From Planctomycetota bacterium (GTDB lineage: Bacteria > Planctomycetota > J058 > J103), in assembly GCA_003694875.1 (NCBI GenBank), contig RFJN01000074.1, forward strand, positions 1 through 10,349: 10,349 nucleotides of DNA. The letters are read 5' to 3'. The notes under the pieces were generated by a model, which was not told the DNA's origin, ran no database searches, and was given only the letters and a program-made list of their open reading frames with translations. The position numbers were made by a program, and so were the translations under genes. Shown here piece after piece: positions 529-10,349 of this stretch. Position 1 is the stretch's first letter. Every line of letters starts with the position of its first letter.

Positions 529-1929
529 GTGCGTGAGCGGCTGAAGGCGCTGGGGGCGCGGCTGCGCGACGAGGCGCAGCGGCTGTTGGACTACCGCGAG
601 ATCGAGGCGCGCTCGAAGGAACTCGGCTGCCCGGTGACCGAGCGCACCCTGCGGTTCTACGTGAGCGAGGGCGTGCTGCCGCCGCCGCACGCGCGCCGCG
701 GCGGCCGTACCCCCGTCTACGAGGAGCAGTGGATCCTCGGGGCGCTGCTCGCGATCCACATCATGCGCGAGCGCTTCGGTCGCTCGCTCGCCGAGATCCG
801 GGAGGTGCTGCGGCGGCTGACCGACGAGCCGGCACTGCTCGCCGAGAAGCTGCAGGCGCTACACGACGCGACCCACGATCCGGGCGAGCCGGGCGGTGCG
901 GGGCCGCTCGCGGACGTGGCGCTCACCCGCGAGCAGGCCCGCCGTGCGATCGACACCTTCTTCTCCCGCCTCGTCGGGGCGGACGGCAGCCGGCCGCTGC
1001 AGCCGAGCGAGATCTCGGTGCTCGATCTCGTCACCGAGATCGCGAACCCGCCCGAGCAGCGGGTGGCCGCCCTGCCGATCGAGCCCGCCGCCGTGCTCGC
1101 CCCCGACACGCTGCCCGAGGGGGCGGTGCCGCTCGAGCGGGCGCGTGCGCTCGAGGATCTGTTCATAGGCCGCTTCGAGGATCGGCTCGGCGAGGCGCGT
1201 CGGATCGTGCACCCCGAGGACGGCGGCGCGATCGCGGCGGGCCCGCGCGACCGGGTGGAGCAGAAGACGCTGCGCTTCGACGAGGTGGTCGATCTCATGA
1301 AGCGCCACCGCGTCTACGATCGGGCGCTGCTGCGCGCCATGCCGCTCGATGTCGCGCTGATCTACCGCTACATGTCGCGCTCGCTGTTCGGCCGCCGCGA
1401 GCCGCGGCTCGTGCTCGCGGCCTGCAGCGTCTCGCCGCTCGAGGAGCTCGTGACCCGGCGGTACGCGACGCGGCGAGCCGGTGCGGCCGAGCTCGAGCGC
1501 GCGCTCGAGCTCGTGCGTCCGTCGCCGGGCGCGCTGCACGCGGTGGGGGTGCTGTCCACCACCGGCTGGGAGCCTGGTACCGAGCACCAGCTGCCGGACA
1601 ACGCCGATCTGCTCGTCGCGCTCGTGAGCTTCGAGGGGGGCACGCGCTGGCGGCTGCAGCACAGCGGCGACGCGCGCTGGGCGCTGCTCGCGCCGTGGTT
1701 CGATCCCGAGACCGAGCGCGAGAAGATCGACCGGGCGCGCGCGGCGATCGCCGCCCACCCGCAGCTCGCGCTGCGCGGCGGGCACGTCGTGCTCGCGCAC
1801 CTCGTGGAGGAACTCGCCATGGACCCGCGGCTCGTCATGCGCGCGGTCGGAGAGCTGCTCGAGGCCGACCGGGAGCTGGCGCTTCTCGAGGTCGGGGGGC
1901 GTCAGATCATCAAGCGAAAACGGTTGTAG
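529..1929 (+). CDS. MerR-family HTH protein, about 466 aa, with a long C-terminal region of unknown function. It is the first gene of the co-directional cluster.
   Basis: Frame of track ORF 313..1929. The GTG at 529 has GAGGAG (515..520) 8 nt upstream; an alternative GTG lies at 511. The N-terminal region 'LDYREIEARSKELGCPVTERTLRFYVSEGVLPPPHARRGGRTPVYEEQWILGALLAIHIMRERFGRSLAEIREVL' matches the MerR HTH signature (T.RTLRfYe..GLLpP, then the wing, then the second helix pair). The remaining 380 aa or so show no motif I recognise. Stop TAG at 1927..1929. Confidence 0.55.
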   Translation: MRERLKALGARLRDEAQRLLDYREIEARSKELGCPVTERTLRFYVSEGVLPPPHARRGGRTPVYEEQWILGALLAIHIMRERFGRSLAEIREVLRRLTDEPALLAEKLQALHDATHDPGEPGGAGPLADVALTREQARRAIDTFFSRLVGADGSRPLQPSEISVLDLVTEIANPPEQRVAALPIEPAAVLAPDTLPEGAVPLERARALEDLFIGRFEDRLGEARRIVHPEDGGAIAAGPRDRVEQKTLRFDEVVDLMKRHRVYDRALLRAMPLDVALIYRYMSRSLFGRREPRLVLAACSVSPLEELVTRRYATRRAGAAELERALELVRPSPGALHAVGVLSTTGWEPGTEHQLPDNADLLVALVSFEGGTRWRLQHSGDARWALLAPWFDPETEREKIDRARAAIAAHPQLALRGGHVVLAHLVEELAMDPRLVMRAVGELLEADRELALLEVGGRQIIKRKRL

Positions 1930-1962
1930 TCGCGGGCGGGAGCGTAGGGAGGCAGCGCGGGC

Positions 1963-2718
1963 GTGTCCCTTCTCGAGAGAATCCAGAGGCTGTTCAGCCG
2001 GCCGGAGCTGCCCGAGCAGACGCGGCAGCTGTTCTCGCGCGCGCGCTCGACGCGCGAGCTGCTCGCGGGGCTCGACGAGCTGCTCACGCGCAACGAGATC
2101 GAGCTCGGCGAGATCGATCGCGAGATCGAGCGGCTCGAGCGCGCCGAGCGCCACGAGGCCGAGCGGGTGCGCTCGGGAGAGGTGCAGGGGCGCAACAGGC
2201 GCAACACGCTGTACCGGATCCAGCGGCTGCGCAAGCAGATGGATCTGTGCGAGGGCAGGGCGCGGATCTACCGGCACAACATCGAGCTGCACATGCGGCT
2301 GATCGACCGCATCCAGCAGCTCGAGGCCATGGCGCTGCGCGGGGTCGGGGAGGCCGAGATCGAGCAGATCGCGCTGCGCTTCGACGAGGAGCGCGAGAAG
2401 TTCGAGGAGACGGTGCACGCCGGTGCGGCGCTGACCGGCGAGACGCCGCTCGGTGCGAGCCGCGAGGAGCGCGAGCTCGCCGCGCTCGAGCGCGAGATCC
2501 TCGGCGAGAGCCGCCCGGCCGAGGCCCCGGAAGGCGAGCTGTCGGTCGAGCCCACGGGGGAGCCCGCGATCGAGGCGAACGTGCAGCCGCTTCCGCCCGC
2601 GGGCTTCGAGACGGTGGTGCCGCCGATCGAGCGCGCGCCCGAGCCGGGGATCGAGGCGGAGGGCGAGGCGGGTTCGGAGGCGGCCGAGCCGCGCACGCGA
2701 CGGCTCGAGCTGGAGTGA
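1963..2718 (+). CDS. ESCRT-III/Snf7-superfamily-like coiled-coil protein, 251 aa, with an acidic Glu/Pro/Ala-rich C-terminal tail.
   Basis: GTG start at 1963 with GGGAGG about 10 nt upstream; stop TGA at 2716..2718. It has an N-terminal amphipathic segment (MSLLERIQRLFSRPELP), long heptad-like helices (ELLAGLDELLTRNEIELGEIDREIERLERAERHEAERV ... LYRIQRLRKQMDL ... HNIELHMRLIDRIQQLEAMAL), then a low-complexity acidic tail. That is the Snf7/CHMP architecture, it is 33 nt downstream of the previous gene, and it sits next to two clearer Snf7-like genes and a Vps4-like ATPase. This is the weakest call of the three paralogues. Confidence 0.5.
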   Translation: MSLLERIQRLFSRPELPEQTRQLFSRARSTRELLAGLDELLTRNEIELGEIDREIERLERAERHEAERVRSGEVQGRNRRNTLYRIQRLRKQMDLCEGRARIYRHNIELHMRLIDRIQQLEAMALRGVGEAEIEQIALRFDEEREKFEETVHAGAALTGETPLGASREERELAALEREILGESRPAEAPEGELSVEPTGEPAIEANVQPLPPAGFETVVPPIERAPEPGIEAEGEAGSEAAEPRTRRLELE

Positions 2719-2727
2719 GGAGGGGGC

Positions 2728-3366
2728 ATGTCCATCAAGGCGATCTTCGAGCAGATCTTCGGCCGCAAGAAGCAGGTCACCAGCCGCGATCTCAAGGTGG
2801 CGCTGCTCGGGCTCAAGCGCCAGGCGCGCAAGAAGCAGCTCGCGCTGCGCAAGCTCGAGAGCAAGCGCAACGAGCTGATCGACCGCATCAAGCGCGCGCG
2901 CCGCGACGGGCGCTCGCTCGAGGTCGATGTGCTGTGGGAGGAGCTGCGCCAGGTGCGCATCGACGGGGCGTACGCGCGGCGCGAGGCGCGCGTGCTGTCG
3001 CTCGAGATGGTGGGGCTCACCCGTTATCTGCGCGGGATCGAGCGGCTCGAGCGCAGCGGGCGCTCGACCGAGATCCGCACGCTGATCGAGCGCGTGCGCA
3101 GCTCGGGGCTCGACGAGAAGCTGCGCGGCCAGGAGGTCGACGAGGCGGCGTATCTCGACGAGCTCAACGCGACGCTCGAGGAGGTGGGGCTCGAGATCGA
3201 GGCGTTCGAGGCCGAGGAGATCGACCCGGAGAAGGCGCGCTTCCTCGAGCAGATCGACGCGATCAACGCCGCCGAGAGCGAGGGCAAGATCGACGAGGCG
3301 GTGGCGCGCGAGGAGCAGCTCGCGCAGCAGCTCGAGGCGGAACCGCTCGCGGAGTCGGATCTGTGA
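2728..3366 (+). CDS. ESCRT-III/Snf7-like protein, 212 aa.
   Basis: ATG at 2728 lies directly downstream of AGGAGG (2718..2723) and only 9 nt after the previous stop; stop TGA at 3364..3366. 'MSIKAIFEQIFGRKKQ' resembles the Snf7/CHMP N-termini (MSLFGKLFG.KK). A basic helical hairpin follows (LKRQARKKQLALRKLESKRNELIDRIKRARRDGR ... LWEELRQVRIDGAYARREARVLSLEMVGL). The C-terminal region is acidic (DEAAYLDELNATLEEVGLEIEAFEAEEIDPEKARFLEQIDAINAAE) and ends in a short helix (EEQLAQQLEAEPLAESDL) that is MIM-like. Confidence 0.7.
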   Translation: MSIKAIFEQIFGRKKQVTSRDLKVALLGLKRQARKKQLALRKLESKRNELIDRIKRARRDGRSLEVDVLWEELRQVRIDGAYARREARVLSLEMVGLTRYLRGIERLERSGRSTEIRTLIERVRSSGLDEKLRGQEVDEAAYLDELNATLEEVGLEIEAFEAEEIDPEKARFLEQIDAINAAESEGKIDEAVAREEQLAQQLEAEPLAESDL

Positions 3367-3402
3367 GCGGCGACCGCGTCCGCGCACACGAGGGAGGCTA
3401 GC

Positions 3403-4659
3403 GTGGTCGATCTCAGTGCCAGCTTGCGCAAGGCTCTTCTCGACACGCTCGAGCGCGCGCGCACCCGCTACTACGCCGGCGAGGACAGCAAGGCGGCGGC
3501 CGACTACGAGCACGCCTCGCGGCTCGCGCTGCAGCTCGCCGAGAGCGCGCCGGACCGGCGCACCGAGATCAAGTACAAGCGCGACGCGCTGCGGTTTCGC
3601 GATGTGGCGCGCCGGATCGCGCGCGGCGACGTGCCGCCGGTGGGCGAGCGCGGCCGGCCGCGCGAGGAGCGCGGCGGCGCGAAGCCGGCCGGTGCGGCCG
3701 GGATCGAGAAGCAGGCCGGGGCGCGCGAGGAGGACGACGGGCTGTCGGCGGCCGTCTCCTCGCTCGTCACCGTCTCGAACGTGACGTGGAACGAGATCGG
3801 GGGGCTCGAGGAGACCAAGCGCGAGATCAAGTACGCGCTCGCGCTCTCGATGGCGGCCGCGCCCGAGGGGCTGCGCGTCACCCGCTTCCGCAACATGATG
3901 TTCTACGGGCCGCCCGGCACCGGAAAGACGCTGCTCGCCGCCGCGACGTCGAATGCGCTGCGCCGCAGCGCGCAGGAGCAGGCGCGCGCGGTGTTCTACA
4001 ACGTCAAGGTGAGTTCGCTGCTGTCGAAGTACTTCGGCGAGTCGCCGCGGCTCGTGAGCGAGCTGTACGGCCAGGCGCGCGACGCCTCGCCCGCGGTGGT
4101 GTTCCTCGACGAGTTCGACGCGCTCGCGGGCTCGCGCGACCGCGACGACACCGGCGCCGAACGCCGGATCCTCAGCACGATCCTCGCCGAGCTCGACGGG
4201 CTGTCGGAGAAGGGGCGCGAGGACGTCTACGTGCTCACGATCGCGGCGACCAACCGCCCCTGGGACCTCGACGAGGCGGTGCTGAGCCGCTTCGACAAGA
4301 AGATCCTCATCCCGCTGCCCGATCCCGACACGCGCGCGGCGATCCTGCGCATCCACATCCTCGATCGCGGCTTCGAGACGCGTGTGCCGATGGAGCAGCT
4401 CGTGGCGCTGACCGAGGGCTACAGCGGGCGCGAGATCGAGCGGTTCGCCAAGGAGGTGCAGAACCGCATGATCCAGGAGATGAACCCCGGGCTGATCGAG
4501 CGGCTCGACCGCGGTCTCGAGGCGGTGCGCGACTATCGCATCGCGGTGCGCGAGCTCGAGTGGCGCGACTTCGAGCAGGCGGCGGCGCGCATCACCCCGC
4601 AGACGTCGCCGCAGGAGATGGAACAGTTCGTGCGCTGGCAGGCATCCATGTCGGTGTAG
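3403..4659 (+). CDS. Vps4/CdvC-like AAA+ ATPase, 418 aa, with an N-terminal MIT-like three-helix domain. It belongs to the meiotic-clade AAA group (Vps4/spastin/katanin).
   Basis: GTG at 3403 with GGGAGG (3392..3397) 5 nt upstream; stop TAG at 4657..4659. N-terminus: LRKALLDTLERARTRYYAGEDSKAAADYEHASRLALQLAESAPDRRTEIKYKRDALRFRDVARRIARG, a MIT-like three-helix bundle with the 'Y..A..Y..A...L' pattern. A Pro/Gly/Ala-rich linker follows. AAA cassette: 'VTWNEIGGLEETKREIKYAL' (compare Vps4 'VKWEDVAGLEGAKEALKEAV'), Walker A 'FYGPPGTGKTLLA', pore loop 'SKYFGES', Walker B 'VVFLDEFDAL', 'TIAATNRPWDLDEAVLSRFDKKILIPLPD' (compare Vps4 '[26 protein letters not shown]'). The C-terminal helix 'LEWRDFEQAAARITPQTSPQEMEQFVRWQ' resembles the Vps4_C helix ('[29 protein letters not shown]'). 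Confidence 0.85.
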   Translation: MVDLSASLRKALLDTLERARTRYYAGEDSKAAADYEHASRLALQLAESAPDRRTEIKYKRDALRFRDVARRIARGDVPPVGERGRPREERGGAKPAGAAGIEKQAGAREEDDGLSAAVSSLVTVSNVTWNEIGGLEETKREIKYALALSMAAAPEGLRVTRFRNMMFYGPPGTGKTLLAAATSNALRRSAQEQARAVFYNVKVSSLLSKYFGESPRLVSELYGQARDASPAVVFLDEFDALAGSRDRDDTGAERRILSTILAELDGLSEKGREDVYVLTIAATNRPWDLDEAVLSRFDKKILIPLPDPDTRAAILRIHILDRGFETRVPMEQLVALTEGYSGREIERFAKEVQNRMIQEMNPGLIERLDRGLEAVRDYRIAVRELEWRDFEQAAARITPQTSPQEMEQFVRWQASMSV

Positions 4660-4683
4660 GGGCGAGGTTGCGAGGAGCGGAAC

Positions 4684-5280
4684 ATGGGGCTGTTCAAGAG
4701 CAAGGCCGAGCGAAAGCTCGAGCGCGACATGGAGATCCGCAAGGGGATCAACGCTTGCAAGCGCAGCATCCGGGAGCTGCAGCGCCACGAGCGCGACTAC
4801 ATCAAGAAGGCGCGGCGGGCCAAGGAGATCGGCGCGGAGGACCAGCTGCGCTTCCTCAAGAAGACGATCCGGCAGACCGCCGCGCAGCGGCGCGCGCTCG
4901 AGCGCCAGCTGCTCGCGATCGAGACGGCCGCGCAGCGCAAGAACCAGATGGAGATGCAGGGGCAGTTCGCGCGCTCGCTCGCCACGATCTCGAAGTCGAT
5001 CGCTGAGGTGTTCAACGACGTCAACTGGGTCGAGGTGCAGAAGAACTTCGAGAAGGCGATGCTGCAGGCCGAGACGTTCGAGGAGCAGGCCGAACTCTTT
5101 CTCGAGGCCTCGCAGCAGACCATGTTCACCGACAAGGCGTACGACGAGGAGCTGGTCAGCGACGACGAGATCGACCGCATGATCGAGGACCAGGCGGCGA
5201 AGGAGGAGTTGCGCGAGCTCGATCGCAAGATCGAGGCGGGGCTCGGCGAGATCGAGCGCGAGTTGAAACAGCGCGAGTGA
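4684..5280 (+). CDS. ESCRT-III/Snf7/CHMP-like protein, 198 aa, most similar in pattern to CHMP2/Vps2-type subunits.
   Basis: ATG at 4684 with GAGGAG (4672..4677) 6 nt upstream, 24 nt after the Vps4-like stop; stop TGA at 5278..5280. 'MGLFKSKAERKLERDMEIRKGINACKRSIRELQRHERDYIKKARRAKEIGAEDQLRFLKKTIRQ' parallels CHMP2A 'MDLLFGRRKTPEELLRQNQRALNRAMRELDRERQKLETQEKKIIADIKKMAKQGQMDAVRIMAKDLVR'. 'WVEVQKNFEKAMLQAETFEEQAELFLEASQQ' parallels 'LPQIQKIMMEFERQAEIMDMKEEMMNDAIDD'. The C-terminus is acidic (DEELVSDDEIDRMIEDQAAKEELRELDRKIE). Confidence 0.75.
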   Translation: MGLFKSKAERKLERDMEIRKGINACKRSIRELQRHERDYIKKARRAKEIGAEDQLRFLKKTIRQTAAQRRALERQLLAIETAAQRKNQMEMQGQFARSLATISKSIAEVFNDVNWVEVQKNFEKAMLQAETFEEQAELFLEASQQTMFTDKAYDEELVSDDEIDRMIEDQAAKEELRELDRKIEAGLGEIERELKQRE

Positions 5281-5347: not shown

Positions 5348-5435
5348 CGATGCCGTGGTGCTACGGTGAGGTTGCGGCGATCGGGGGCTGCGGCGCCGTC
5401 GGGGCGCAGAGGTGTGCGAGCAGAGGTGTGAGGCC

Positions 5436-6713
5436 ATGGTGTTGCGCGAGGGAGTGCGGCTCGGGGACTGGCGGCTGGTGGAGCGTCTGGGCACGGGCGC
5501 GTTCAGCGAGGTGTGGCGCGCGGTGCACGCGGTGCTCGGGCACGAGGCGGCGCTCAAGATCGCCCATGGCGAGGAGGCGATCGAGCGGCTCGTCGCCGGC
5601 GCCCGCGCGCAGTTCGGTCTCGAGCACCCCGGCATCGTGGCGGTCCGCGACATCGTGGTGAGCGAGCGGCCGGCCTGGATCGTCATGGACGCGGTGCGCG
5701 GCCCCACGCTGCGGCGGGTGCTCGAGGAGCGTGGCCGACTCGAGGTGCCGTGCGCCGCGGCGGTGCTGCGCCAGGTCATGGACGCGCTCGAGCATGCGCA
5801 CGCGCGCGGGATCGTGCACGGGGATCTCAAGCCCGAGAACATCCTCGTCGAGATCGAGCCCGGCGCCGGCCGCGGCGCGCAGTGGCGCGTGCGCGTGACC
5901 GATTTCCTGATCGGACGACCGGGGGCGCAGCGCGCCCCCGCGCCCGGCGGCGCGCTGCGGCCGAGTCTGCGCACGCGCGAGGGGGTGGGGACGCTGCACT
6001 ACATGGCGCCCGAGCAGGAGCGGCCCGGGGGCGCGCCGCTCGATGCGCGCGTGGATCTCTACGCGCTCGGGGTGCTGCTGTTCGAGATGCTCACCGGCTC
6101 GCTGCCGCAGGGCCGCGATCTGCCGAGCGACCTCAACCCGGCGGTCTCGTGGTGGTGGGACCACGTCTACAGCCGCTGCTACACCGGGCGCGAGCGGCGC
6201 TACCCCTCGATCGAGGCGCTGCGGGCCGATCTCGACGCGATCGCGGGCGGCCCCACCTGGGGCGAGCTGCCGAGCCAGCGCCGGCCCTGGCCCGCGCGGC
6301 CGGCTGCGCCCGTGCTCGCGGCCTCGCGCGGGCGTCGGAGCGCGCGCGGAGGGCGCACGCGGCAGCTCTCGTGCGCCCACCGCCGGGCGGTCCGCCGCCG
6401 GCGGGTGCACACCGTGATCGGCCTGCTGCTGCTCGGCGGCGCGCTCGCGGTGGGCATGCGCCAGATCGACGCACTCGTGCGCGCGCCCTGGCGCGCCTCG
6501 CCGTGGCGGGTACAGCCGGTGGCGCGCCCGGTCGCGGCCGGCGCGCACGGCCGGCTCGTGCGCGCGTGGAACAAGGGCCGCTACCGGGTGCACGTGCTCG
6601 AATACGACGGACAGCGTTGGGTCTACGTCTATCCCCGGGAGGGCAACGAGCCGGTGCGGGTGCTGCGGGTGAACCGGCCCGGGTTCGTGCGGTCCGGGGT
6701 TTGCGGGCGGTGA
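5436..6713 (+). CDS. Membrane-anchored Hanks-type Ser/Thr protein kinase of about 425 aa. It has a kinase domain, a single transmembrane helix, then an extracytoplasmic domain of about 85 aa. The catalytic motifs are non-canonical (HGD in place of HRD, DFL in place of DFG).
   Basis: Frame of track ORF 5412..6713. ATG at 5436 gives MVLREGVRLGDWRLVERLGTGAFSEVW (Gly-rich loop), then 'EAALKI' (VAIK Lys), 'GIVHGDLKPENILV' (catalytic loop, non-RD), 'VRVTDFLIGRP' (DFG-like), 'GTLHYMAPEQ' (APE), 'DLYALGVLLFEMLTGSLP'. The TM segment is 'VHTVIGLLLLGGALAVGM', followed by a small C-terminal domain. The start is ambiguous between GTG 5412 and ATG 5436. Confidence 0.8.
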   Translation: MVLREGVRLGDWRLVERLGTGAFSEVWRAVHAVLGHEAALKIAHGEEAIERLVAGARAQFGLEHPGIVAVRDIVVSERPAWIVMDAVRGPTLRRVLEERGRLEVPCAAAVLRQVMDALEHAHARGIVHGDLKPENILVEIEPGAGRGAQWRVRVTDFLIGRPGAQRAPAPGGALRPSLRTREGVGTLHYMAPEQERPGGAPLDARVDLYALGVLLFEMLTGSLPQGRDLPSDLNPAVSWWWDHVYSRCYTGRERRYPSIEALRADLDAIAGGPTWGELPSQRRPWPARPAAPVLAASRGRRSARGGRTRQLSCAHRRAVRRRRVHTVIGLLLLGGALAVGMRQIDALVRAPWRASPWRVQPVARPVAAGAHGRLVRAWNKGRYRVHVLEYDGQRWVYVYPREGNEPVRVLRVNRPGFVRSGVCGR

Positions 6714-6786
6714 CGGCGGTGGGCGGCGGAGCGGCAACGGTGGGCGTGCGTCGGGCGGTTTCGCGGTGACACGGGCGGGAGGAGCC

Positions 6787-8766
6787 ATGGCCAGGGTGGA
6801 TGTGGAGCGGTTTGCGCAGAGTGCCGACGCGCTCGCGGTGGCGCTGGACGCCGACGCGCTGCCGGGGGTGTTCGGCAAGCGTCTGGTCGTGCCCGAGGGC
6901 TGCGTGGCGTGGATCGAGCCCGAGGACGCGGCCGCGCGCCTCGCCGCACCCGGCGACAGCGTGCGGGGGCGGTTCGAGGCGGTGCTCGTCAAGCGCGCCG
7001 ACGTGGCGCTGAGCTTCGAGTTCTCGGGGCTCGCGGCCGCCGACGGCCACGAGGTGACCGCGGGGCTGCAGCTCGTGCTGCGGCTGCCGCGCACCGAGGT
7101 GGCGATCCGGCAGCTCGCGGCGACGCTGTTGCGCGAGCAGCCGGCGCTCGATCACGACCGGCTGCGCGCCTACCTCGCTCCGGCGGTGCGCGCCGCGCTT
7201 GCGCGCCACGTGGCGGCGCGTGCGCTCGAACCGCTCATGGAGAGCGATCCGCGCGCGGCACTCGACGAGGCGATCCGGGCCGAGAGCGAGGCGCTGCTGT
7301 TCGACGCGGGGCTCGAGCTGCTCGAGCTGCGGCTGCCGTCGTTCTACAGCGAGGCGTTCGAGGCGATCCGCGCCGCGCGGGCCGCGGCCGAACTCGAGGC
7401 GCACCGGCTCGCCGAGCAGCAGCGGGTGCAGGAGATGCGCGCGCGGCTCGAGCGCAACGAGCGGCTCAAGCGCGAGGAGATCGAGGCGTTCGCGCGGCGG
7501 CTGCGCTACCAGGGGGTGCTCGAGGAGCTCGAGCTGCGCGAGCAGCTCGACCGCAAGCGCTTCGAGCAGCAGGTGCAGCGCTTCGAGGCGCTGTACGAGA
7601 AGCTCGGGCGCGACGAGACGAAGGCGCTGATCTTTCTGCTCGACGACGAGCAGCTCAAGGCGCAGCTCTTGCGCGAACTGATCCGGCGCGACATGACGCC
7701 GGAGCAGCTCGCCGCGCTGCGCGCCGAGGAGCTCGAGCGCCGGGTCGCCGAGCGGCTCGCCGCCTTCGGGGCGCACGCGGCCGAACGCGAGGGGCAGCGG
7801 GCGCAGCGGGTGGCGCGCTCCGGCATGCGCACCCGTCGTCTGCTCGTCGCCTTCGGCAAGCAGGTGCTCGCCTTCGAGCCGTCGGCGGGCGAGCGCTGCG
7901 AGCGCGAACGCTACGACTTCTCCGGCGGTCCTCTCGGCTGGGTGCGCAGTGTGCGCGTGGTGGCGACCCGCCGCGGGCCGGCGGTGGTGGCCGGGGCGCA
8001 GCGCGGAATCTACGTCGTGCTCGATGGCGAGACCGAGCCGCGCGCGCTCACGCTGCCGCGCGAGCCGCGCGGCCGGGGTGGCGTGAACGCCGCGGCCGCC
8101 TTCGGGGGCTATCTGTACGCGACCCACTCCGAACTCGGGCTCACCCGCTGGGACGAGTACGGGCTCGAGCGGCCCGAGCCGCTGTTCGAGGCGGTGACCG
8201 CGCGCAACGAGGCGACGCGCGGGGTGCAGGTCAGTGCCGACGGCCGGCTGTACTTCTCGTCGGGCCCCGACATCTATCGCTGCGACCTCGTGCGGCCGAG
8301 CCACGAACTGGTGCGCTTCCACGGGCGCGAGGGCTCGATCACGGGGTTCGTGCTCTCGGAGCACGAGGTGTTCGCGGGCACGGGCGAGGGGCGGGTGCTG
8401 CGCTGGTCGATCGACGATCCGGGCTCGCCGCGCGAGCTCAACGTGCGCAAGGGCGGGCCGATCTACATGCTGCGGCTCGCGGAGATCGACGGCGCGCCGC
8501 ACCTGCTCGTGGGCGCGAAGGAGCACGGGATCACCGCGGTCTCGCTCGAGCAGGGGCGTGCGTTCGACTACCGCGCGCCCGAGGCGATCCGCTGGGTCGA
8601 CGGCGCCACCGACTTCGTCTACGGTGTGAGTCGTGACGGTCGCGCGGTGCACGTCTGGGACGCGGACCGGCTCGGCGAGCCGCGCTTCGTGCTGCGGGTG
8701 CCGGAGCGGATCCAGGACGTGTGGGTGCAGAAGGAGCCCATGGTGCGAGAGGGGCCTGCATGCTGA
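6787..8766 (+). CDS. Large protein of about 659 aa with three parts: an SPFH/band-7 (stomatin/flotillin)-like N-terminal domain, a Glu/Arg/Ala-rich coiled coil, and a C-terminal beta-propeller-like repeat region.
   Basis: Frame of track ORF 6766..8766. The ATG at 6787 (MARVDVERF) follows GGGAGGAG (6777..6784); GTG 6766 is an alternative. The N-terminus 'LVVPEGCVAWIEPED ... RFEAVLVKRADVALSFEFSGLAAADGHEVTAGLQLVLRL ... DEAIRAESEALLFDAGLELLELRL' parallels SPFH hallmarks (IVPQGxxGVVERFG ... TKDNVTVxVDAVVYYRV ... EAxxPWGIEVxxVxIKDI). The coiled coil is 'AAAELEAHRLAEQQRVQEMRARLERNERLKREEIEAFARRLRYQGVLEELELREQL'. The C-terminal half has repeated beta-strand-rich units ending in W-containing motifs (GIYVVLDGE, GRLYFSS, GRVLRWSIDD, HLLVGAKEHGITAV, RAVHVWDAD), which is beta-propeller-like. 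Stop TGA at 8764..8766. Confidence 0.55.
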   Translation: MARVDVERFAQSADALAVALDADALPGVFGKRLVVPEGCVAWIEPEDAAARLAAPGDSVRGRFEAVLVKRADVALSFEFSGLAAADGHEVTAGLQLVLRLPRTEVAIRQLAATLLREQPALDHDRLRAYLAPAVRAALARHVAARALEPLMESDPRAALDEAIRAESEALLFDAGLELLELRLPSFYSEAFEAIRAARAAAELEAHRLAEQQRVQEMRARLERNERLKREEIEAFARRLRYQGVLEELELREQLDRKRFEQQVQRFEALYEKLGRDETKALIFLLDDEQLKAQLLRELIRRDMTPEQLAALRAEELERRVAERLAAFGAHAAEREGQRAQRVARSGMRTRRLLVAFGKQVLAFEPSAGERCERERYDFSGGPLGWVRSVRVVATRRGPAVVAGAQRGIYVVLDGETEPRALTLPREPRGRGGVNAAAAFGGYLYATHSELGLTRWDEYGLERPEPLFEAVTARNEATRGVQVSADGRLYFSSGPDIYRCDLVRPSHELVRFHGREGSITGFVLSEHEVFAGTGEGRVLRWSIDDPGSPRELNVRKGGPIYMLRLAEIDGAPHLLVGAKEHGITAVSLEQGRAFDYRAPEAIRWVDGATDFVYGVSRDGRAVHVWDADRLGEPRFVLRVPERIQDVWVQKEPMVREGPAC

Positions 8767-9626
8767 GGCTGCTGACGCGCGTCAGCCAGATCGGCTTCAG
8801 CCTCGCGGTGACCGCCGCGATCGTGTGGTTTCTGTGGGACAAGATCGGCGGCGAGCCGCGGCGCGAACTCGATCCCTACCGGCAGGTGCTCGCTGAGCGT
8901 GCGGTGCGGCAGCTCGCGCACGAGGTGCCGCGGCGCGACGAGATCCGCAAGCTCGTGGTGGCGCCGGTGGTGCGGGACGTCGACGACCGGGTGACCGATC
9001 TGCTCGTGGACGCGCTCGAGGACGAGCAGCTGTACTTCCTCGTCTCGCCGTCGACGGTGCGCGACACGATCGACAAGCGCTTCGGCGGCCGGCGGCCGCG
9101 CACGCTCGAGGACGCGGTGGCGCTCGCGCGCGCGATCGCGCAGGAGGATCCCGCCGTCGAGGGGGTGTTGTTCACCATCCTGGGGCACTTCAGCGATGGT
9201 CGACGCGGGATCGGGGCGCACGTCGAACTCAAGGGCTGGCTGGCGCGCCTCGATACCGGCGAGCCGGTGCCCGGCGGGCTCGTGGGGCCGGTGCACGCGA
9301 CCATCCGTGGCCGGCTCGATCTCGACTGGATCGCGGCGACCATGCGCTCGATCGCGCTGTGGAAGCGGCTCGGGATCTGGCTGATCTTCACCGCCGGCCT
9401 GCCGTTTGCGCTCTCGTCGGTCGTCGCGCGCGTGACGCGGCTGCGTTCCAACCGTGCGAACGCCTGGCTGCTCGCGGGGCTCGTGGGCGCGAGCGTGGCG
9501 CTCGGCTGGCTGCTCATGGGGCTGCGGATCGGCTGGGGCGGGGTGCTGGTGCTGCTGCTCGGGGCGCTCGTGGCGTTCGTGTACGATTTCACGATCTGCG
9601 ATCAGATCGACGAGGCGCAGCGGTGA
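8760..9626 (+). CDS. Polytopic membrane protein of unknown function, 288 aa, with one N-terminal TM, a soluble domain of about 170 aa, and three C-terminal TMs.
   Basis: Frame of track ORF 8721..9626. The internal ATG at 8760 (MLRLLTRVSQIGFSLAVTAAIVWFLW) overlaps the upstream TGA as ATGCTGA, the classic translational-coupling arrangement. Hydrophobic segments: IGFSLAVTAAIVWFLW; LGIWLIFTAGLPFALSSVV; AWLLAGLVGASVALGWLLMGL; GGVLVLLLGALVAFVY. Confidence 0.6.
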   Translation: MLRLLTRVSQIGFSLAVTAAIVWFLWDKIGGEPRRELDPYRQVLAERAVRQLAHEVPRRDEIRKLVVAPVVRDVDDRVTDLLVDALEDEQLYFLVSPSTVRDTIDKRFGGRRPRTLEDAVALARAIAQEDPAVEGVLFTILGHFSDGRRGIGAHVELKGWLARLDTGEPVPGGLVGPVHATIRGRLDLDWIAATMRSIALWKRLGIWLIFTAGLPFALSSVVARVTRLRSNRANAWLLAGLVGASVALGWLLMGLRIGWGGVLVLLLGALVAFVYDFTICDQIDEAQR

Positions 9627-9666: not shown

Positions 9667-10349
9667 ATGAAGCGCGTGGCGCCCGGAGACCGGATCAGCG
9701 AGTTCGTCCTCGAGCGCCGGCTCGGCGAGGGCGGCTTCGGCGAGGTGTGGCTCGCGCACCACCACGTGTGGCGCGATCGGCGCGTCGCGGTCAAGCTGCC
9801 CGCGAGCCCCGAGCAGGCGCGGCTGCTCGAGAACGAGGGGGTGCTGCAGGACCTCGTGCGGCACCCGAACGCGGTCGAGGTGCTCGGCCTCGACCCGACC
9901 CACGATCCGCCGTACCTGATCCTCGAGTACGTCGAGGGCCGCAGCCTGCGCGAGCGGCTGCGCGAGGGGCGGCTCGGCCAGCTCGAGGCGATCGCGGTGG
10001 CGCGGCCGCTGTTGTCCGCGCTCGCGTACGCGCACGAGCGCGGGGTGGTGCACCGCGACCTCAAGCCCGGCAACGTGCTGATCGCCGACGACGGGACGGT
10101 GAAGCTCGCCGACTTCGGGCTCGGGCGGCTGCGGGAGCTCGAGCGCTCGCAGCTCGCGCTGAGCGCGACGTTCGCCTCGCGCAGCGCGCCGAGCTCCGGC
10201 ACGCTCGCGTACATGGCGCCGGAGCAGCGGGCGGGCGCGCGCGAGATCGACGCGCGCGCCGACGTCTACGCCTTCGGCATCCTGTGGTTCGAGATGCTCA
10301 CCGGCGCGCTGCCCGAGGGGCGCGAGGTGCCGAGCGATCTGCGGCCGGA
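9667..10349 (+). CDS. Partial CDS; the C-terminus lies beyond the right edge. Canonical Hanks-type Ser/Thr protein kinase.
   Basis: ATG at 9667 with GAGAGGGG about 6 nt upstream. 'LGEGGFGEVWLAHH' (GxGxxG), 'RVAVKL', 'GVVHRDLKPGNVLIADDGTVKLADFGLGR', 'GTLAYMAPEQ', 'DVYAFGILWFEMLTGALPEGREVPSDLRP'. All catalytic motifs are intact. The open frame runs to the window end. Confidence 0.85.
   Translation, partial: MKRVAPGDRISEFVLERRLGEGGFGEVWLAHHHVWRDRRVAVKLPASPEQARLLENEGVLQDLVRHPNAVEVLGLDPTHDPPYLILEYVEGRSLRERLREGRLGQLEAIAVARPLLSALAYAHERGVVHRDLKPGNVLIADDGTVKLADFGLGRLRELERSQLALSATFASRSAPSSGTLAYMAPEQRAGAREIDARADVYAFGILWFEMLTGALPEGREVPSDLRP

Follow-up and report, generated by a model that had tools for sequence, protein, structure and literature searches.

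The window analysed here is the whole 10,349-nucleotide stretch (contig RFJN01000074.1, from a member of the Planctomycetota). It holds two overlapping genes, one encoding a 659-residue protein, called the scaffold protein below, and one a four-TM partner, flanked by the following genes and signals:

3403 to 4659, forward strand: classical-clade AAA ATPase ('AAA#1') with an N-terminal helical region of about 115 residues (Pfam, NCBIfam)
4684 to 5280, forward strand: 198-aa putative Snf7/ESCRT-III-like protein (Pfam, profile search, orthologs)
5412 to 6713, forward strand: membrane Ser/Thr kinase, encoded immediately before the scaffold gene (ORF, Pfam, BLAST)
6777 to 6784, forward strand: Shine-Dalgarno-like GGGAGGAG, read from the sequence, with a 2-nt spacer (3 positions) to the ATG
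6787 to 8766, forward strand: gene for the 659-aa SPFH-coiled-coil-WD40 scaffold protein (ORF, 13 homologs, AF2 pLDDT 83.9)
8760 to 8766, forward strand: ATGCTGA, a 7-nt overlap in which the partner gene starts and the scaffold gene stops (sequence)
8760 to 9626, forward strand: gene for the 288-aa four-TM partner, of no known family (ORF, hydropathy, homolog alignment)
9667 to 10349, forward strand: 5' portion of another Ser/Thr kinase gene, which runs off the end of the contig (synteny)

The scaffold gene runs from an ATG at 6787-6789, a start backed by alignment A1 (the NCBI annotation begins 5 codons downstream), to a TGA at 8764-8766. The window is 72% GC and chance long ORFs arise in such DNA (a 1309-aa ORF is also present on the opposite strand), so the length of an ORF is no evidence of coding, and the frequency of spurious long ORFs in the window would fit a gene that is not real. 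Coding is supported, however, by 13 homologs (49-100% identity), by an uncharacterised family of 668 clusters at 50% identity, and by a confident AlphaFold model; hundreds of homologs with the same architecture, the conserved synteny and the predicted structure refute a chance ORF, the probability of which is vanishingly small. Promoter- and terminator-like sites were sought between 5200 and 10349 and none were found, a result that is uninformative given the GC-rich genome.

The partner ATG at 8760-8762 agrees with the NCBI-annotated 288-aa product and with the N-termini of homologs. At the equivalent junction the closest relative (L012) has GTGCTGA, and elsewhere the two genes overlap by 4 nt or 1 nt or are separated by a gap of 0-4 nt, such that the scaffold and 4-TM genes are tightly coupled in seven loci (range 7-nt overlap to 4-nt gap). 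The start-in-stop arrangement had been read in the initial annotation as 1:1 co-expression; the overlap does argue for coupled expression, but it says nothing on stoichiometry, and only the coupling is retained here.

Structure models, alignments and conservation divide the scaffold protein as follows:

6787 to 6876, forward strand: N-terminal extension, aa 1-30, with one short helix plus a strand that is added to the SPFH sheet (models, alignment)
6877 to 7350, forward strand: SPFH/Band-7 domain, aa 31-188
7351 to 7488, forward strand: long helix, aa 189-234, the counterpart of the CC1 wall helix in SPFH cages
7489 to 7554, forward strand: linker, aa 235-256 (pLDDT below 50 at 234-256, mean conservation 0.20)
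7555 to 7821, forward strand: helical middle region, aa 257-345 (models, alignment, conservation)
7822 to 8739, forward strand: seven-bladed WD40-type beta-propeller, aa 346-651 (DSSP strands, Foldseek, profile matches, conservation)

In the close clade, residues F9, A10, L25, P26 and G27 of the N-terminal extension do not vary. The SPFH alpha/beta fold is present according to fold comparison, in which about 193-228 positions of the SPFH domain and wall helix were aligned with HflK/C, PHB and erlin, although sequence identity to solved SPFH proteins is just 8-18%. A CC1-type long coiled-coil helix directly follows the SPFH domain, helix H189-234/235 being found in both structure models. The middle region consists of three short helices with a conserved motif, G274-Q307 ('KALIFLLEDERLKA...RDMT'), and ends in a 41-residue helix that runs into the propeller.

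The scaffold protein had no match when scanned directly against Pfam, NCBIfam and PADLOC; Pfam Band_7 (PF01145) did not match the window protein at E<=1, nor did Pfam WD40, and with the protein below every Pfam threshold for both families, support for the two domains comes from orthologs and structure. Band_7 scores 26.3, 24.4 and 30.8 bits in the orthologs P0002, P0008 and P0010 (cut-off 23.6) and matches 16 of 50 diverse family members at E<=0.01. A PDB profile search with the N-terminal alignment returned no SPFH entry, the fold comparison alone finding SPFH proteins. The N-terminal SPFH/band-7 domain proposed in the initial annotation is thus borne out by the ortholog matches and the predicted structure, whereas the proposed likeness to flotillin repeats was not recovered, as no Flot-type Pfam family matched any of 11 close or 50 diverse members.

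The propeller model contains 28 strands (DSSP on the AlphaFold model), arranged as seven four-stranded blades with 3+1 closure, in which the C-terminal strand 642-651 closes the last blade together with strands 347-377. Foldseek aligned about 270-330 columns with WD40 propellers at E of about 1e-11, among them Tako8, Fbw7, beta-TrCP, TLE1 and G-beta. The C-terminal propeller with W-ending repeats that had been suspected from the sequence therefore stands; the tryptophans end strand C at 455, 540 and 624, in blades 2, 4 and 6. The family profile matched designed and natural WD40 chains with E-values from 7e-10 to 2e-3, with individual repeats scoring weakly, and Beta-prop_TEP1_2nd matched 2 of 50 family members. 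Among 50 diverse members, R387, S388, G403, N434, H447, S448, G451, R478 and G535 are invariant. The polar residues of this set are found in blades 1, 2, 3 and 6, at position two of strand A, and in the B-C turn of blade 2; from established WD40 topology we take these sites to line the entrance of the top-face channel.

The top face is also where the phosphodegron-binding arginines of Fbw7 and Cdc4 sit, two proteins that rank among the best structural matches. With the phosphodegron readers Fbw7, Cdc4 and beta-TrCP, and with TLE1 and G-beta, the scaffold protein shares a seven- or eight-bladed WD40 fold (Foldseek E of about 1e-10 to 1e-11) and conserved Arg, His and Ser at top-surface positions. 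Identity to these propellers is 11-17% and the scaffold protein has no F-box or other known partner domain; phosphopeptide binding is a candidate property.

By hydropathy, a membrane anchor of its own (N-terminal TM segment or hairpin) is not present in the scaffold protein: no 19-residue window reaches a Kyte-Doolittle value of 1.4, no signal peptide was detected, and of 148 family representatives just 6 have a TM-like segment. SPFH proteins occur universally as scaffolds of membrane microdomains; their cage structures were solved only recently, and PDB entry titles describe them as membrane-bound cages. In contrast to the cage-forming scaffolds HflK/HflC, QmcA, prohibitin, erlin, stomatin and flotillin, the protein described here lacks an N-terminal TM segment, hairpin or lipid anchor, and where those have a C-terminal cap (CC2 and a terminal strand), it has a propeller of 300 residues on a flexible helical stalk. 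The shoulder of the major vault protein gives a lower fold score than membrane SPFH proteins, and that protein differs in its N-terminal repeat domains, its lack of a propeller and its eukaryotic origin. We conclude that the scaffold protein is a cytoplasmic, anchor-less member of the SPFH superfamily in which wall helix, helical stalk and seven-bladed WD40 propeller follow one another.

The partner gene can be subdivided as follows:

8781 to 8837, forward strand: TM1, aa ~8-26 (hydropathy; conserved)
8838 to 9368, forward strand: charged loop domain of ~177-180 aa between TM1 and TM2 (alignments A3, A9)
9369 to 9596, forward strand: conserved 3-TM module, aa ~204-279 (hydropathy, alignment)

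Hydropathy places the TM helices at about 8-26, 204-223, 235-255 and 259-279, in a layout conserved among homologs, in agreement with the polytopic four-TM protein that had been annotated downstream. Invariant positions of the 3-TM module are W207, P215 (in 'LPFA'), N231, G240, L252, G258 and Y275. The loop between TM2 and TM3 is Arg-rich (RVTRLRSNRAN), from which the positive-inside rule predicts a periplasmic loop domain, so that only the short loops and the conserved 9-residue C-tail could touch a cytoplasmic scaffold. The loop domain is missing from the 134-aa homologs of distant loci (L007, L008 and L010), which also carry the 4-TM module, and is therefore considered a clade-specific insertion; in that distant clade the 4-TM gene lies about 6 kb from the scaffold gene and does not adjoin it. 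The 4-TM module is found in all eight related loci with comparable DNA, and a ninth (the contig of P0004) has a syntenic 286-aa gene after the scaffold gene. Searches of the partner against Pfam, NCBIfam, PADLOC and the PDB gave chance-level matches only (MurJ E=0.5, FA_desaturase E=0.24) and the loop domain had no family match; it may resemble periplasmic domains of the LpoB, FlgO or TolB-N type. Partners in SPFH-NfeD operon pairs are NfeD proteins, unlike the one here: no NfeD OB-fold was matched in the partner and its orthologs by Pfam at E<=5, or in NCBIfam or the PDB.

The gene pair is part of a conserved, undescribed Planctomycetota cluster. In eleven other loci the scaffold gene shares a cluster with genes for a Snf7-like protein, one or more AAA ATPases, Ser/Thr kinases and the 4-TM module, a synteny that spans 23-63% identity (homology by all-against-all BLAST); all nine organism-named family members are from Planctomycetota. 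Repeating the word-indexed search with the diverse alignment A4 added no protein to the 13 already known, and a scan of genome contigs with the narrow alignment A1 listed at least the one known relative. Several divergent genomes also share the chromosomal setting, with a glyoxalase upstream and a Zn-peptidase and FGGY kinase downstream. The order of Snf7-like protein, AAA ATPase and scaffold is fixed across loci. A further reading takes the cluster for an anti-phage or conflict system with band-7 and propeller as effector superstructures, as such superstructure-forming modules are used in NTP-dependent conflict systems (PMC7159879) and the kinase and AAA ATPase match PADLOC models generically. 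These matches are at domain level only, the scaffold, partner and Snf7-like proteins match no PADLOC model, the stable neighbourhood is unlike that of mobile defence islands, and no nuclease, protease or toxin-like effector occurs in the cluster; we regard this reading as very improbable and reject it.

Against Pfam Snf7 the 198-aa neighbour scores E=0.0067, the match covering positions 4-157 of the 171-position profile; five of its nine orthologs also match (best 1.7e-4), all below the gathering score. In a PDB profile search Snf7 ranked first (E=0.017), followed by CHMP2A, CHMP3 and CHMP1B at 0.1-0.6, and the protein is present in every related locus with comparable sequence, with a nearly invariant N-terminus (MGLFKS...ER). 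The evidence for an ESCRT-III-like identity is weak but consistent, in keeping with the suggestion of adjoining ESCRT-III-like machinery in the initial annotation. The window AAA ATPase has no MIT or Vps4_C match, scores 156 bits against CdvC (cut-off 650), and finds mostly two-domain Cdc48/p97 proteins in a PDB sequence search; it is at most a putative Vps4-like ATPase. Two further coiled-coil proteins, of 212 and 251 aa, gave no significant family or PDB match.

In most genomes the cluster includes one Vps4/katanin-type ATPase among its one or two AAA ATPases. An AAA gene is directly upstream of the scaffold gene, as its most constant neighbour, in 9 of 10 loci with a readable upstream gene (the sequence of L002 ends before this position, and the gene is unclassified there). 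This second AAA ATPase matches Vps4_C in four of the seven examples scanned, with 29.4 bits in L008 (above the 21.3 cut-off) and 19-21 bits in the other three. Of the suggested co-occurrence with Snf7/Vps4 genes, that with Snf7-like and AAA genes was recovered in the eleven other loci; the window and its closest relative lack the Vps4_C-type AAA, pointing to a reduced system in the window, and keep the scaffold and 4-TM genes. The scaffold protein might instead be a soluble adaptor, providing substrates or localisation for this Vps4/katanin-clade ATPase, that forms dimers or small oligomers through its coiled coil, with the 4-TM protein merely co-regulated. Its SPFH domain would then be a binding module, and not a ring-forming membrane scaffold. 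The constant AAA neighbour and the missing anchor agree with such a role, the major vault protein, with its SPFH-like shoulder, is an example of this fold working away from membranes, and katanin p60 is accompanied by a WD40 subunit, p80. We consider it unlikely, though with some weight: scaffold and 4-TM genes persist where the ATPase has been lost and so appear not to need it, the 4-TM module is present in every comparable locus, and the SPFH-oligomerising wall helix is retained.

Every related cluster holds one to four kinases, including one that also has FHA and RDD domains; in related loci this kinase-(FHA)-RDD gene stands where the window has the kinase gene at 9667 onward. With kinase genes on both sides of the pair in the window (5412-6713 and 9667 onward), and with a GGDEF and a PspC-domain protein, typical of signalling and envelope stress, in distant loci, the propeller could read Ser/Thr-kinase phosphosites and the scaffold could organise envelope-stress signalling, the Snf7-like protein and AAA ATPase being only operon-mates. 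Kinase number and position are variable, however, in contrast to the fixed order of Snf7-like protein, AAA ATPase and scaffold, and L011 has no kinase between these genes, which makes a signalling scaffold quite unlikely.

Taken together, the pair probably builds a membrane-remodelling platform. The reading we prefer, at a probability of roughly 0.5, is that the protein oligomerises into a scaffold beneath the membrane, is docked there by the 4-TM partner and recruits clients of the ESCRT-III-like system through its propellers. To our knowledge, every SPFH protein with a solved assembly oligomerises through its SPFH domains and wall helices, and by the same contacts the scaffold protein would form a ring- or cup-shaped assembly beneath the cytoplasmic membrane. 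Other SPFH systems are anchored by their own TM segment or by an NfeD-type partner; here the co-translated 4-TM protein may stand in for the missing N-terminal anchor and fix the ring to the membrane. Seven-bladed propellers on each subunit would clash with a closed cage cap, so the assembly should be open or differently organised. The propellers might project from the ring on their stalks and capture a client in the conserved top-face pocket (R387, N434, H447/S448, R478, R602). As the cluster encodes an FHA domain as well as three or four kinases, this client may be phosphorylated, with the Snf7-like subunit or the AAA ATPase as candidates, and the assembly would mark the membrane patch where an ESCRT-III-like polymer is built or dismantled. 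Ring formation, 4-TM docking and phospho-dependent binding are all inferred.

Several points count against this reading: the clash of the propellers with a closed cap, the predicted periplasmic position of the partner's loop domain, the lack of the Vps4_C-type AAA ATPase in the window, Snf7 similarity below curated thresholds, and a distant-clade 4-TM gene that does not adjoin the scaffold gene.

Bacterial PspA-band-7-AAA-propeller-3TM operons have been described, with a TM-band-7-CC-flotillin protein, an AAA+ ATPase fused to a coiled coil and beta-propeller, and a YqiJ/YuaF 3-TM protein, as in YdjI/YdjL of B. subtilis (Ravi et al. 2024, PMC11237479). Like these operons, the present cluster brings together a putative ESCRT-III-superfamily protein, band-7 domain, coiled coil, beta-propeller, AAA ATPase and small multi-TM protein. 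In contrast to them, the propeller is on the band-7 protein, which has no TM segment, and not on the ATPase; the ESCRT-III-like protein scores as Snf7 instead of PspA, the TM partner is of another family, several Ser/Thr kinases are added, and there is no CesT/Tir gene. In B. subtilis, an SPFH protein localises PspA (PMC10936438).

Makarova et al. (2024, PMC10936438) describe archaeal ESCRT systems whose accessory components include SPFH (Meth_adaptin) and WD40/PQQ (Halo_adaptin) proteins, kinases and FHA domains, and the present cluster in most genomes likewise combines a Snf7-like protein and a putative Vps4-type AAA ATPase with an SPFH-coiled-coil protein, propeller, Ser/Thr kinases and FHA domain in one locus. 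The host here is bacterial, and SPFH domain and propeller form a single chain, in contrast to the archaeal SPFH protein with its zinc ribbon; the cluster showed neither ESCRT-I/ESCRT-II-like winged-helix proteins nor adaptin-like Ig domains.

An SPFH protein that lacks an anchor and bears a WD40 propeller where others have the cap would be a new use of this scaffold, as a ring displaying protein-binding modules. ESCRT-III and Vps4 systems are regarded as absent from bacteria (PMC10936438; 2025 review PMC7619361), a view against which the fixed link to a Snf7-like protein and a Vps4_C AAA ATPase in Planctomycetota runs. On a broader and distinctly unlikely reading, the whole cluster would be a Planctomycetota-specific ESCRT-like scission machine, with the SPFH-WD40 ring defining the scission neck, and could serve the long-sought FtsZ-independent division or budding of Planctomycetes, or the building of their membrane invaginations; if true, it would be a bacterial ESCRT-III plus Vps4-type system. 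Planctomycetota lack FtsZ and their division mechanism has been described as entirely unknown (PMC6952346), so the cluster offers a concrete gene set for study. Even if it is only an envelope-stress module, the PspA-band-7 theme is extended to a new architecture and a new phylum.

All plausible genes of the window lie on the + strand, in DNA with a GC content of 68-78% (approximately 72%); the contig derives from a Planctomycetota metagenome-assembled genome, as given in the source name of the database entry of the window protein (P0001). Because the DNA is so GC-rich, the length of an open reading frame carries little weight as evidence. Antisense ORFs are very long (up to 1309 aa; 859-4788, - strand) and were rejected as genes, being an expected artefact at ~72% GC. 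The gene pair considered here, encoding an SPFH-coiled-coil-WD40 protein (the scaffold) and a four-TM protein (the partner), is regarded as real based on the homologs, the conserved synteny and the confident structure predictions. The features are located as follows:

313-1929, + strand: MerR-like gene
1963-5280, + strand: run of genes for coiled-coil proteins of 251 and 212 aa, a classical AAA ATPase (AAA#1, 3403-4659) and a Snf7-like protein (4684-5280)
6777-6784, + strand: Shine-Dalgarno-like GGGAGGAG, read in the sequence upstream of the scaffold ATG
6787-8766, + strand: scaffold gene, 659 aa, ATG at 6787, TGA at 8764-8766
8760-9626, + strand: partner gene, 288 aa, ATG at 8760 inside ATGCTGA
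9667-10349, + strand: 5' part of a Ser/Thr kinase gene, 40 nt after the partner gene, running off the contig

The ATG at 6787 is in register with the N-termini of all homologs (MATIDIxGFA...) and has a good Shine-Dalgarno sequence upstream; the NCBI model of the scaffold (654 aa) starts five codons 3' of it. For the partner, the database entry and the homolog N-termini share the start at 8760. The scaffold-partner junction reads ATGCTGA in the window and GTGCTGA in L012, the closest relative of the window; in the other loci the two genes overlap by 4 nt or 1 nt or are separated by 0-4 nt. The overlap of start and stop is in line with the translational coupling proposed in the initial annotation, whereas the 1:1 stoichiometry proposed with it goes beyond the evidence.

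The initial annotation described the scaffold as a fusion of an SPFH/band-7 domain, a flotillin-like coiled coil and a propeller. The window protein itself has no match to any Pfam, NCBIfam or PADLOC model, but Band_7 scores above the Pfam gathering score over residues ~35-220 in three orthologs (51-63% identity), and 16 out of 50 diverse family members match it at E<=0.01. The N-terminal part is a member of the SPFH superfamily by its predicted fold, and by sequence only its orthologs are. The remainder of the predicted structure is organized as follows:

aa 234-256: low-confidence linker
G274-Q307: well conserved motif (alignment) with three short helices, after the linker
aa 305-345: 41-residue helix
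aa 346-651: beta-propeller, 28 strands forming seven four-stranded blades

The C-terminal strand completes the blade that was started first, closing the propeller. Residues 346-651 match WD40 propellers in Foldseek (E~1e-11), the profile of the scaffold family matches WD40 chains in the PDB, and strand C ends in W at residues 455, 540 and 624. The SPFH part and the propeller are thereby both borne out. The likeness of the coiled coil to flotillin repeats is not, as Pfam scans of close and 50 diverse members find no flotillin-type repeats in the family. Hydropathy analysis detects neither a hydrophobic segment nor a signal-like N-terminus in the scaffold, which argues for a cytoplasmic protein; an own membrane anchor, a usual feature of SPFH proteins, is absent.

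A word-indexed search with the scaffold retrieved 13 relatives only; when 1.84 billion cluster representatives were searched exhaustively with a profile, 668 matched at E<=1e-3, of which 163 at E<=1e-30. Family representatives are mostly 550-650 aa in length and match in the N- and C-terminal parts alike, with a TM-like segment in 6 out of 148. Members carry database names such as 'hypothetical protein', 'WD40 repeat domain-containing protein' and 'SPFH domain-containing protein'. All nine members with an organism named in the source are from Planctomycetota (Phycisphaerae included), and all are MAGs; the phylum assignments rest on metagenome bins.

Hydropathy analysis places four TM helices in the partner, as initially annotated: one N-terminal (~8-26) and three C-terminal (~204-223, 235-255 and 259-279), with a charged region of ~177 aa in between. 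The syntenic orthologs share this layout as well as a 'GLPFA' motif. The partner has no match in Pfam, NCBIfam, PADLOC or PDB sequences, and an assignment as NfeD protein was rejected on that ground. More distant loci encode a 134-aa four-TM protein that aligns with TM1 and the three-TM module of the partner and lacks the ~180-aa loop domain. Its genes are not adjacent to the scaffold gene but lie ~6 kb upstream:

L007, 4063-4467
L008, 3577-3981
L010, 2576-2980

Residues W207, P215, N231, G240, L252, G258 and Y275 are invariant in the partner and these homologs. As the 134-aa homologs do not contain it, the loop domain is a clade-specific insertion, and the membrane module that received it is conserved. 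Among the short loops, the one between TM2 and TM3 (RVTRLRSNRAN) carries the highest positive charge; by the positive-inside rule, the N-terminus and C-tail would be cytoplasmic and the loop domain periplasmic.

We inspected 11 related loci (23-63% identity), and homology among neighbors was determined by all-against-all BLAST of eight loci with extracted genes. In the closer clade, genes for a MerR-like protein, a ~250-aa coiled-coil protein, a ~212-aa protein, AAA#1 and the 198-aa Snf7-like protein are followed by one to three Ser/Thr kinases (none in L011), a second AAA (AAA#2), the scaffold, the four-TM protein and a kinase with an RDD domain and, in some loci, FHA. The order from the MerR-like to the Snf7-like gene is kept in the Planctomycetota loci L001, L003, L005, L009 and L011. 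The distant clade (L007, L008, L010) is arranged differently: a GGDEF protein and the 134-aa four-TM protein are followed by a zinc-ribbon kinase, a small zinc-ribbon TM protein, a ~490-aa homolog of the C-terminal part of the MerR-like protein, a ~203-aa protein, a PspC-domain protein, a 201-aa Snf7-like protein, an AAA and the scaffold. The association of the scaffold with Snf7-like and AAA genes is a fixed one.

The PspC-domain gene of the distant clade (~67 aa; L007 7979-8182, L008 7827-8033, L010 6815-7015) is flanked by two genes for ~200-aa proteins, a short distance upstream of the AAA and scaffold genes, and connects the cluster with envelope-stress components of the phage-shock type.

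Pfam Snf7 covers the 198-aa protein with nearly the whole model (E=0.0067) and matches five out of nine orthologs (best 1.7e-4). In PDB profile searches Snf7 ranks first (E=0.017), ahead of CHMP2A, CHMP3 and CHMP1B; there is no PspA model among the matches of either search. These weak but consistent similarities point to a Snf7-like protein. Its N-terminus, MGLFKS(K)EER (window 4684-4713), is nearly invariant among the orthologs (alignment A8) and is presumably similar to the short motifs by which eukaryotic ESCRT-III subunits insert their N-termini into membranes.

An AAA of 365-408 aa is encoded directly upstream of the scaffold in 9 of the 10 related loci with a readable upstream gene, for example:

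L001, 8790-9941
L003, 8735-9961
L008, 8678-9805

The Vps4 C-terminal oligomerisation domain (Vps4_C) scores 29.4 bits in the L008 protein (cut-off 21.3) and 19-21 bits, against the same cut-off, in three of six other upstream AAAs scanned. Judged from sequence, this places the upstream AAA in the Vps4/katanin/spastin type. In the window and L012, tblastn retrieves AAA#1 only and the C-terminus of a membrane kinase directly precedes the scaffold (the AAA#2 site being between 6713 and 6787 in the window), which looks like a lineage-specific loss. That the scaffold is an AAA adaptor that forms no ring is unlikely: its regular AAA neighbor is what such an adaptor would have, and this neighbor is missing from two loci that retain the scaffold.

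In bacterial PspA operons, a member of the ESCRT-III superfamily is accompanied by band-7, AAA and propeller domains and a small TM protein (PMC11237479). There, the ATPase carries the propeller and the band-7 protein contains a TM segment of its own (PMC11237479), whereas here the propeller is on an SPFH protein without TM segment. Archaeal ESCRT loci encode SPFH-coiled-coil-zinc-ribbon proteins, WD40/PQQ proteins, kinases and FHA domains (PMC10936438). A full-text literature search found no paper on an SPFH-coiled-coil-WD40 fusion or on this Planctomycetota cluster. The type of scaffold (SPFH) and the contextual theme are thus known, and the fusion, the partner family and the phylum are new. 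Vps4-type systems are stated to be absent from bacteria, or to occur only as sporadic transfers without Snf7 (PMC10936438, PMC7619361); as reviews call such ESCRT systems absent, the neighborhood from the MerR-like to the Snf7-like gene merits its own analysis. Planctomycetota lack FtsZ, and their division mechanism is described as unknown (PMC6952346). On its own the scaffold is a moderately surprising architecture, to which the conserved Snf7-like/Vps4_C-AAA/kinase cluster adds weight; the cluster is a candidate ESCRT-like machine of bacteria that can be put to the test.

Established for the scaffold are its architecture, the missing anchor, its coupling to a conserved four-TM module and a fixed gene context of Snf7-like, AAA ATPase and kinase genes. 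To our knowledge, judging from PDB entry titles, all SPFH proteins with a solved assembly form a membrane ring or cage via SPFH-SPFH and wall-helix contacts. As the scaffold keeps the SPFH domain and the wall helix, the most economical expectation is that it would form a ring under the membrane through these contacts. Since it has no anchor, the co-translated four-TM protein is an obvious docking site and may hold it on the membrane. With the propeller standing in for the cap-forming C-terminus, the assembly would be unable to close like HflK/C and would display a crown of propellers. These may capture a client, the Snf7-like subunit or an AAA being the candidates. We infer this model, as all functional statements here, and give it a probability of about 0.5.

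Residues R387/S388, N434, H447/S448, G451 and R478 of the propeller are invariant across the family, and R602 is present in 84% of members; in the predicted structure they fall on the second residue of strand A (blades 1, 2, 3 and 6) and on the turn between strands B and C (blade 2). Such positions lie around the top opening of the central channel in propellers of standard WD40 topology. The phosphodegron readers Fbw7 and Cdc4, which use the same top surface, are among the best structural matches of the scaffold propeller (Foldseek). As the cluster encodes three or four kinases and an FHA domain, it is reasonable to propose that the propellers may capture clients in a phospho-dependent manner. 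The same kinases would be expected around a pure kinase-signalling scaffold, which we consider rather improbable, as the kinases vary in number and position between loci and the Snf7-like, AAA and scaffold genes keep a fixed order. A defence system, to which PADLOC links neither the scaffold nor the partner, is very improbable.

In the Ser/Thr kinase at 5412-6713, the kinase domain is followed by a TM helix and then by a small beta-rich C-terminal segment (…YRVHVLEYDGQRWVYVYPREGNEPVRVLRV…); BLAST is not significant (E>=0.8) for this segment, which by eye recurs at the end of the L012 gene fragment upstream of the scaffold. The genes at the place of the 9667-10349 kinase in related loci also encode RDD, and sometimes FHA, domains. 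In L007 (a 5.4-Mb contig), transposase genes (DDE_Tnp_1, DDE_3) at 12683-15367, directly downstream of the scaffold, suggest an insertion at this site, where the partner gene might have been expected.
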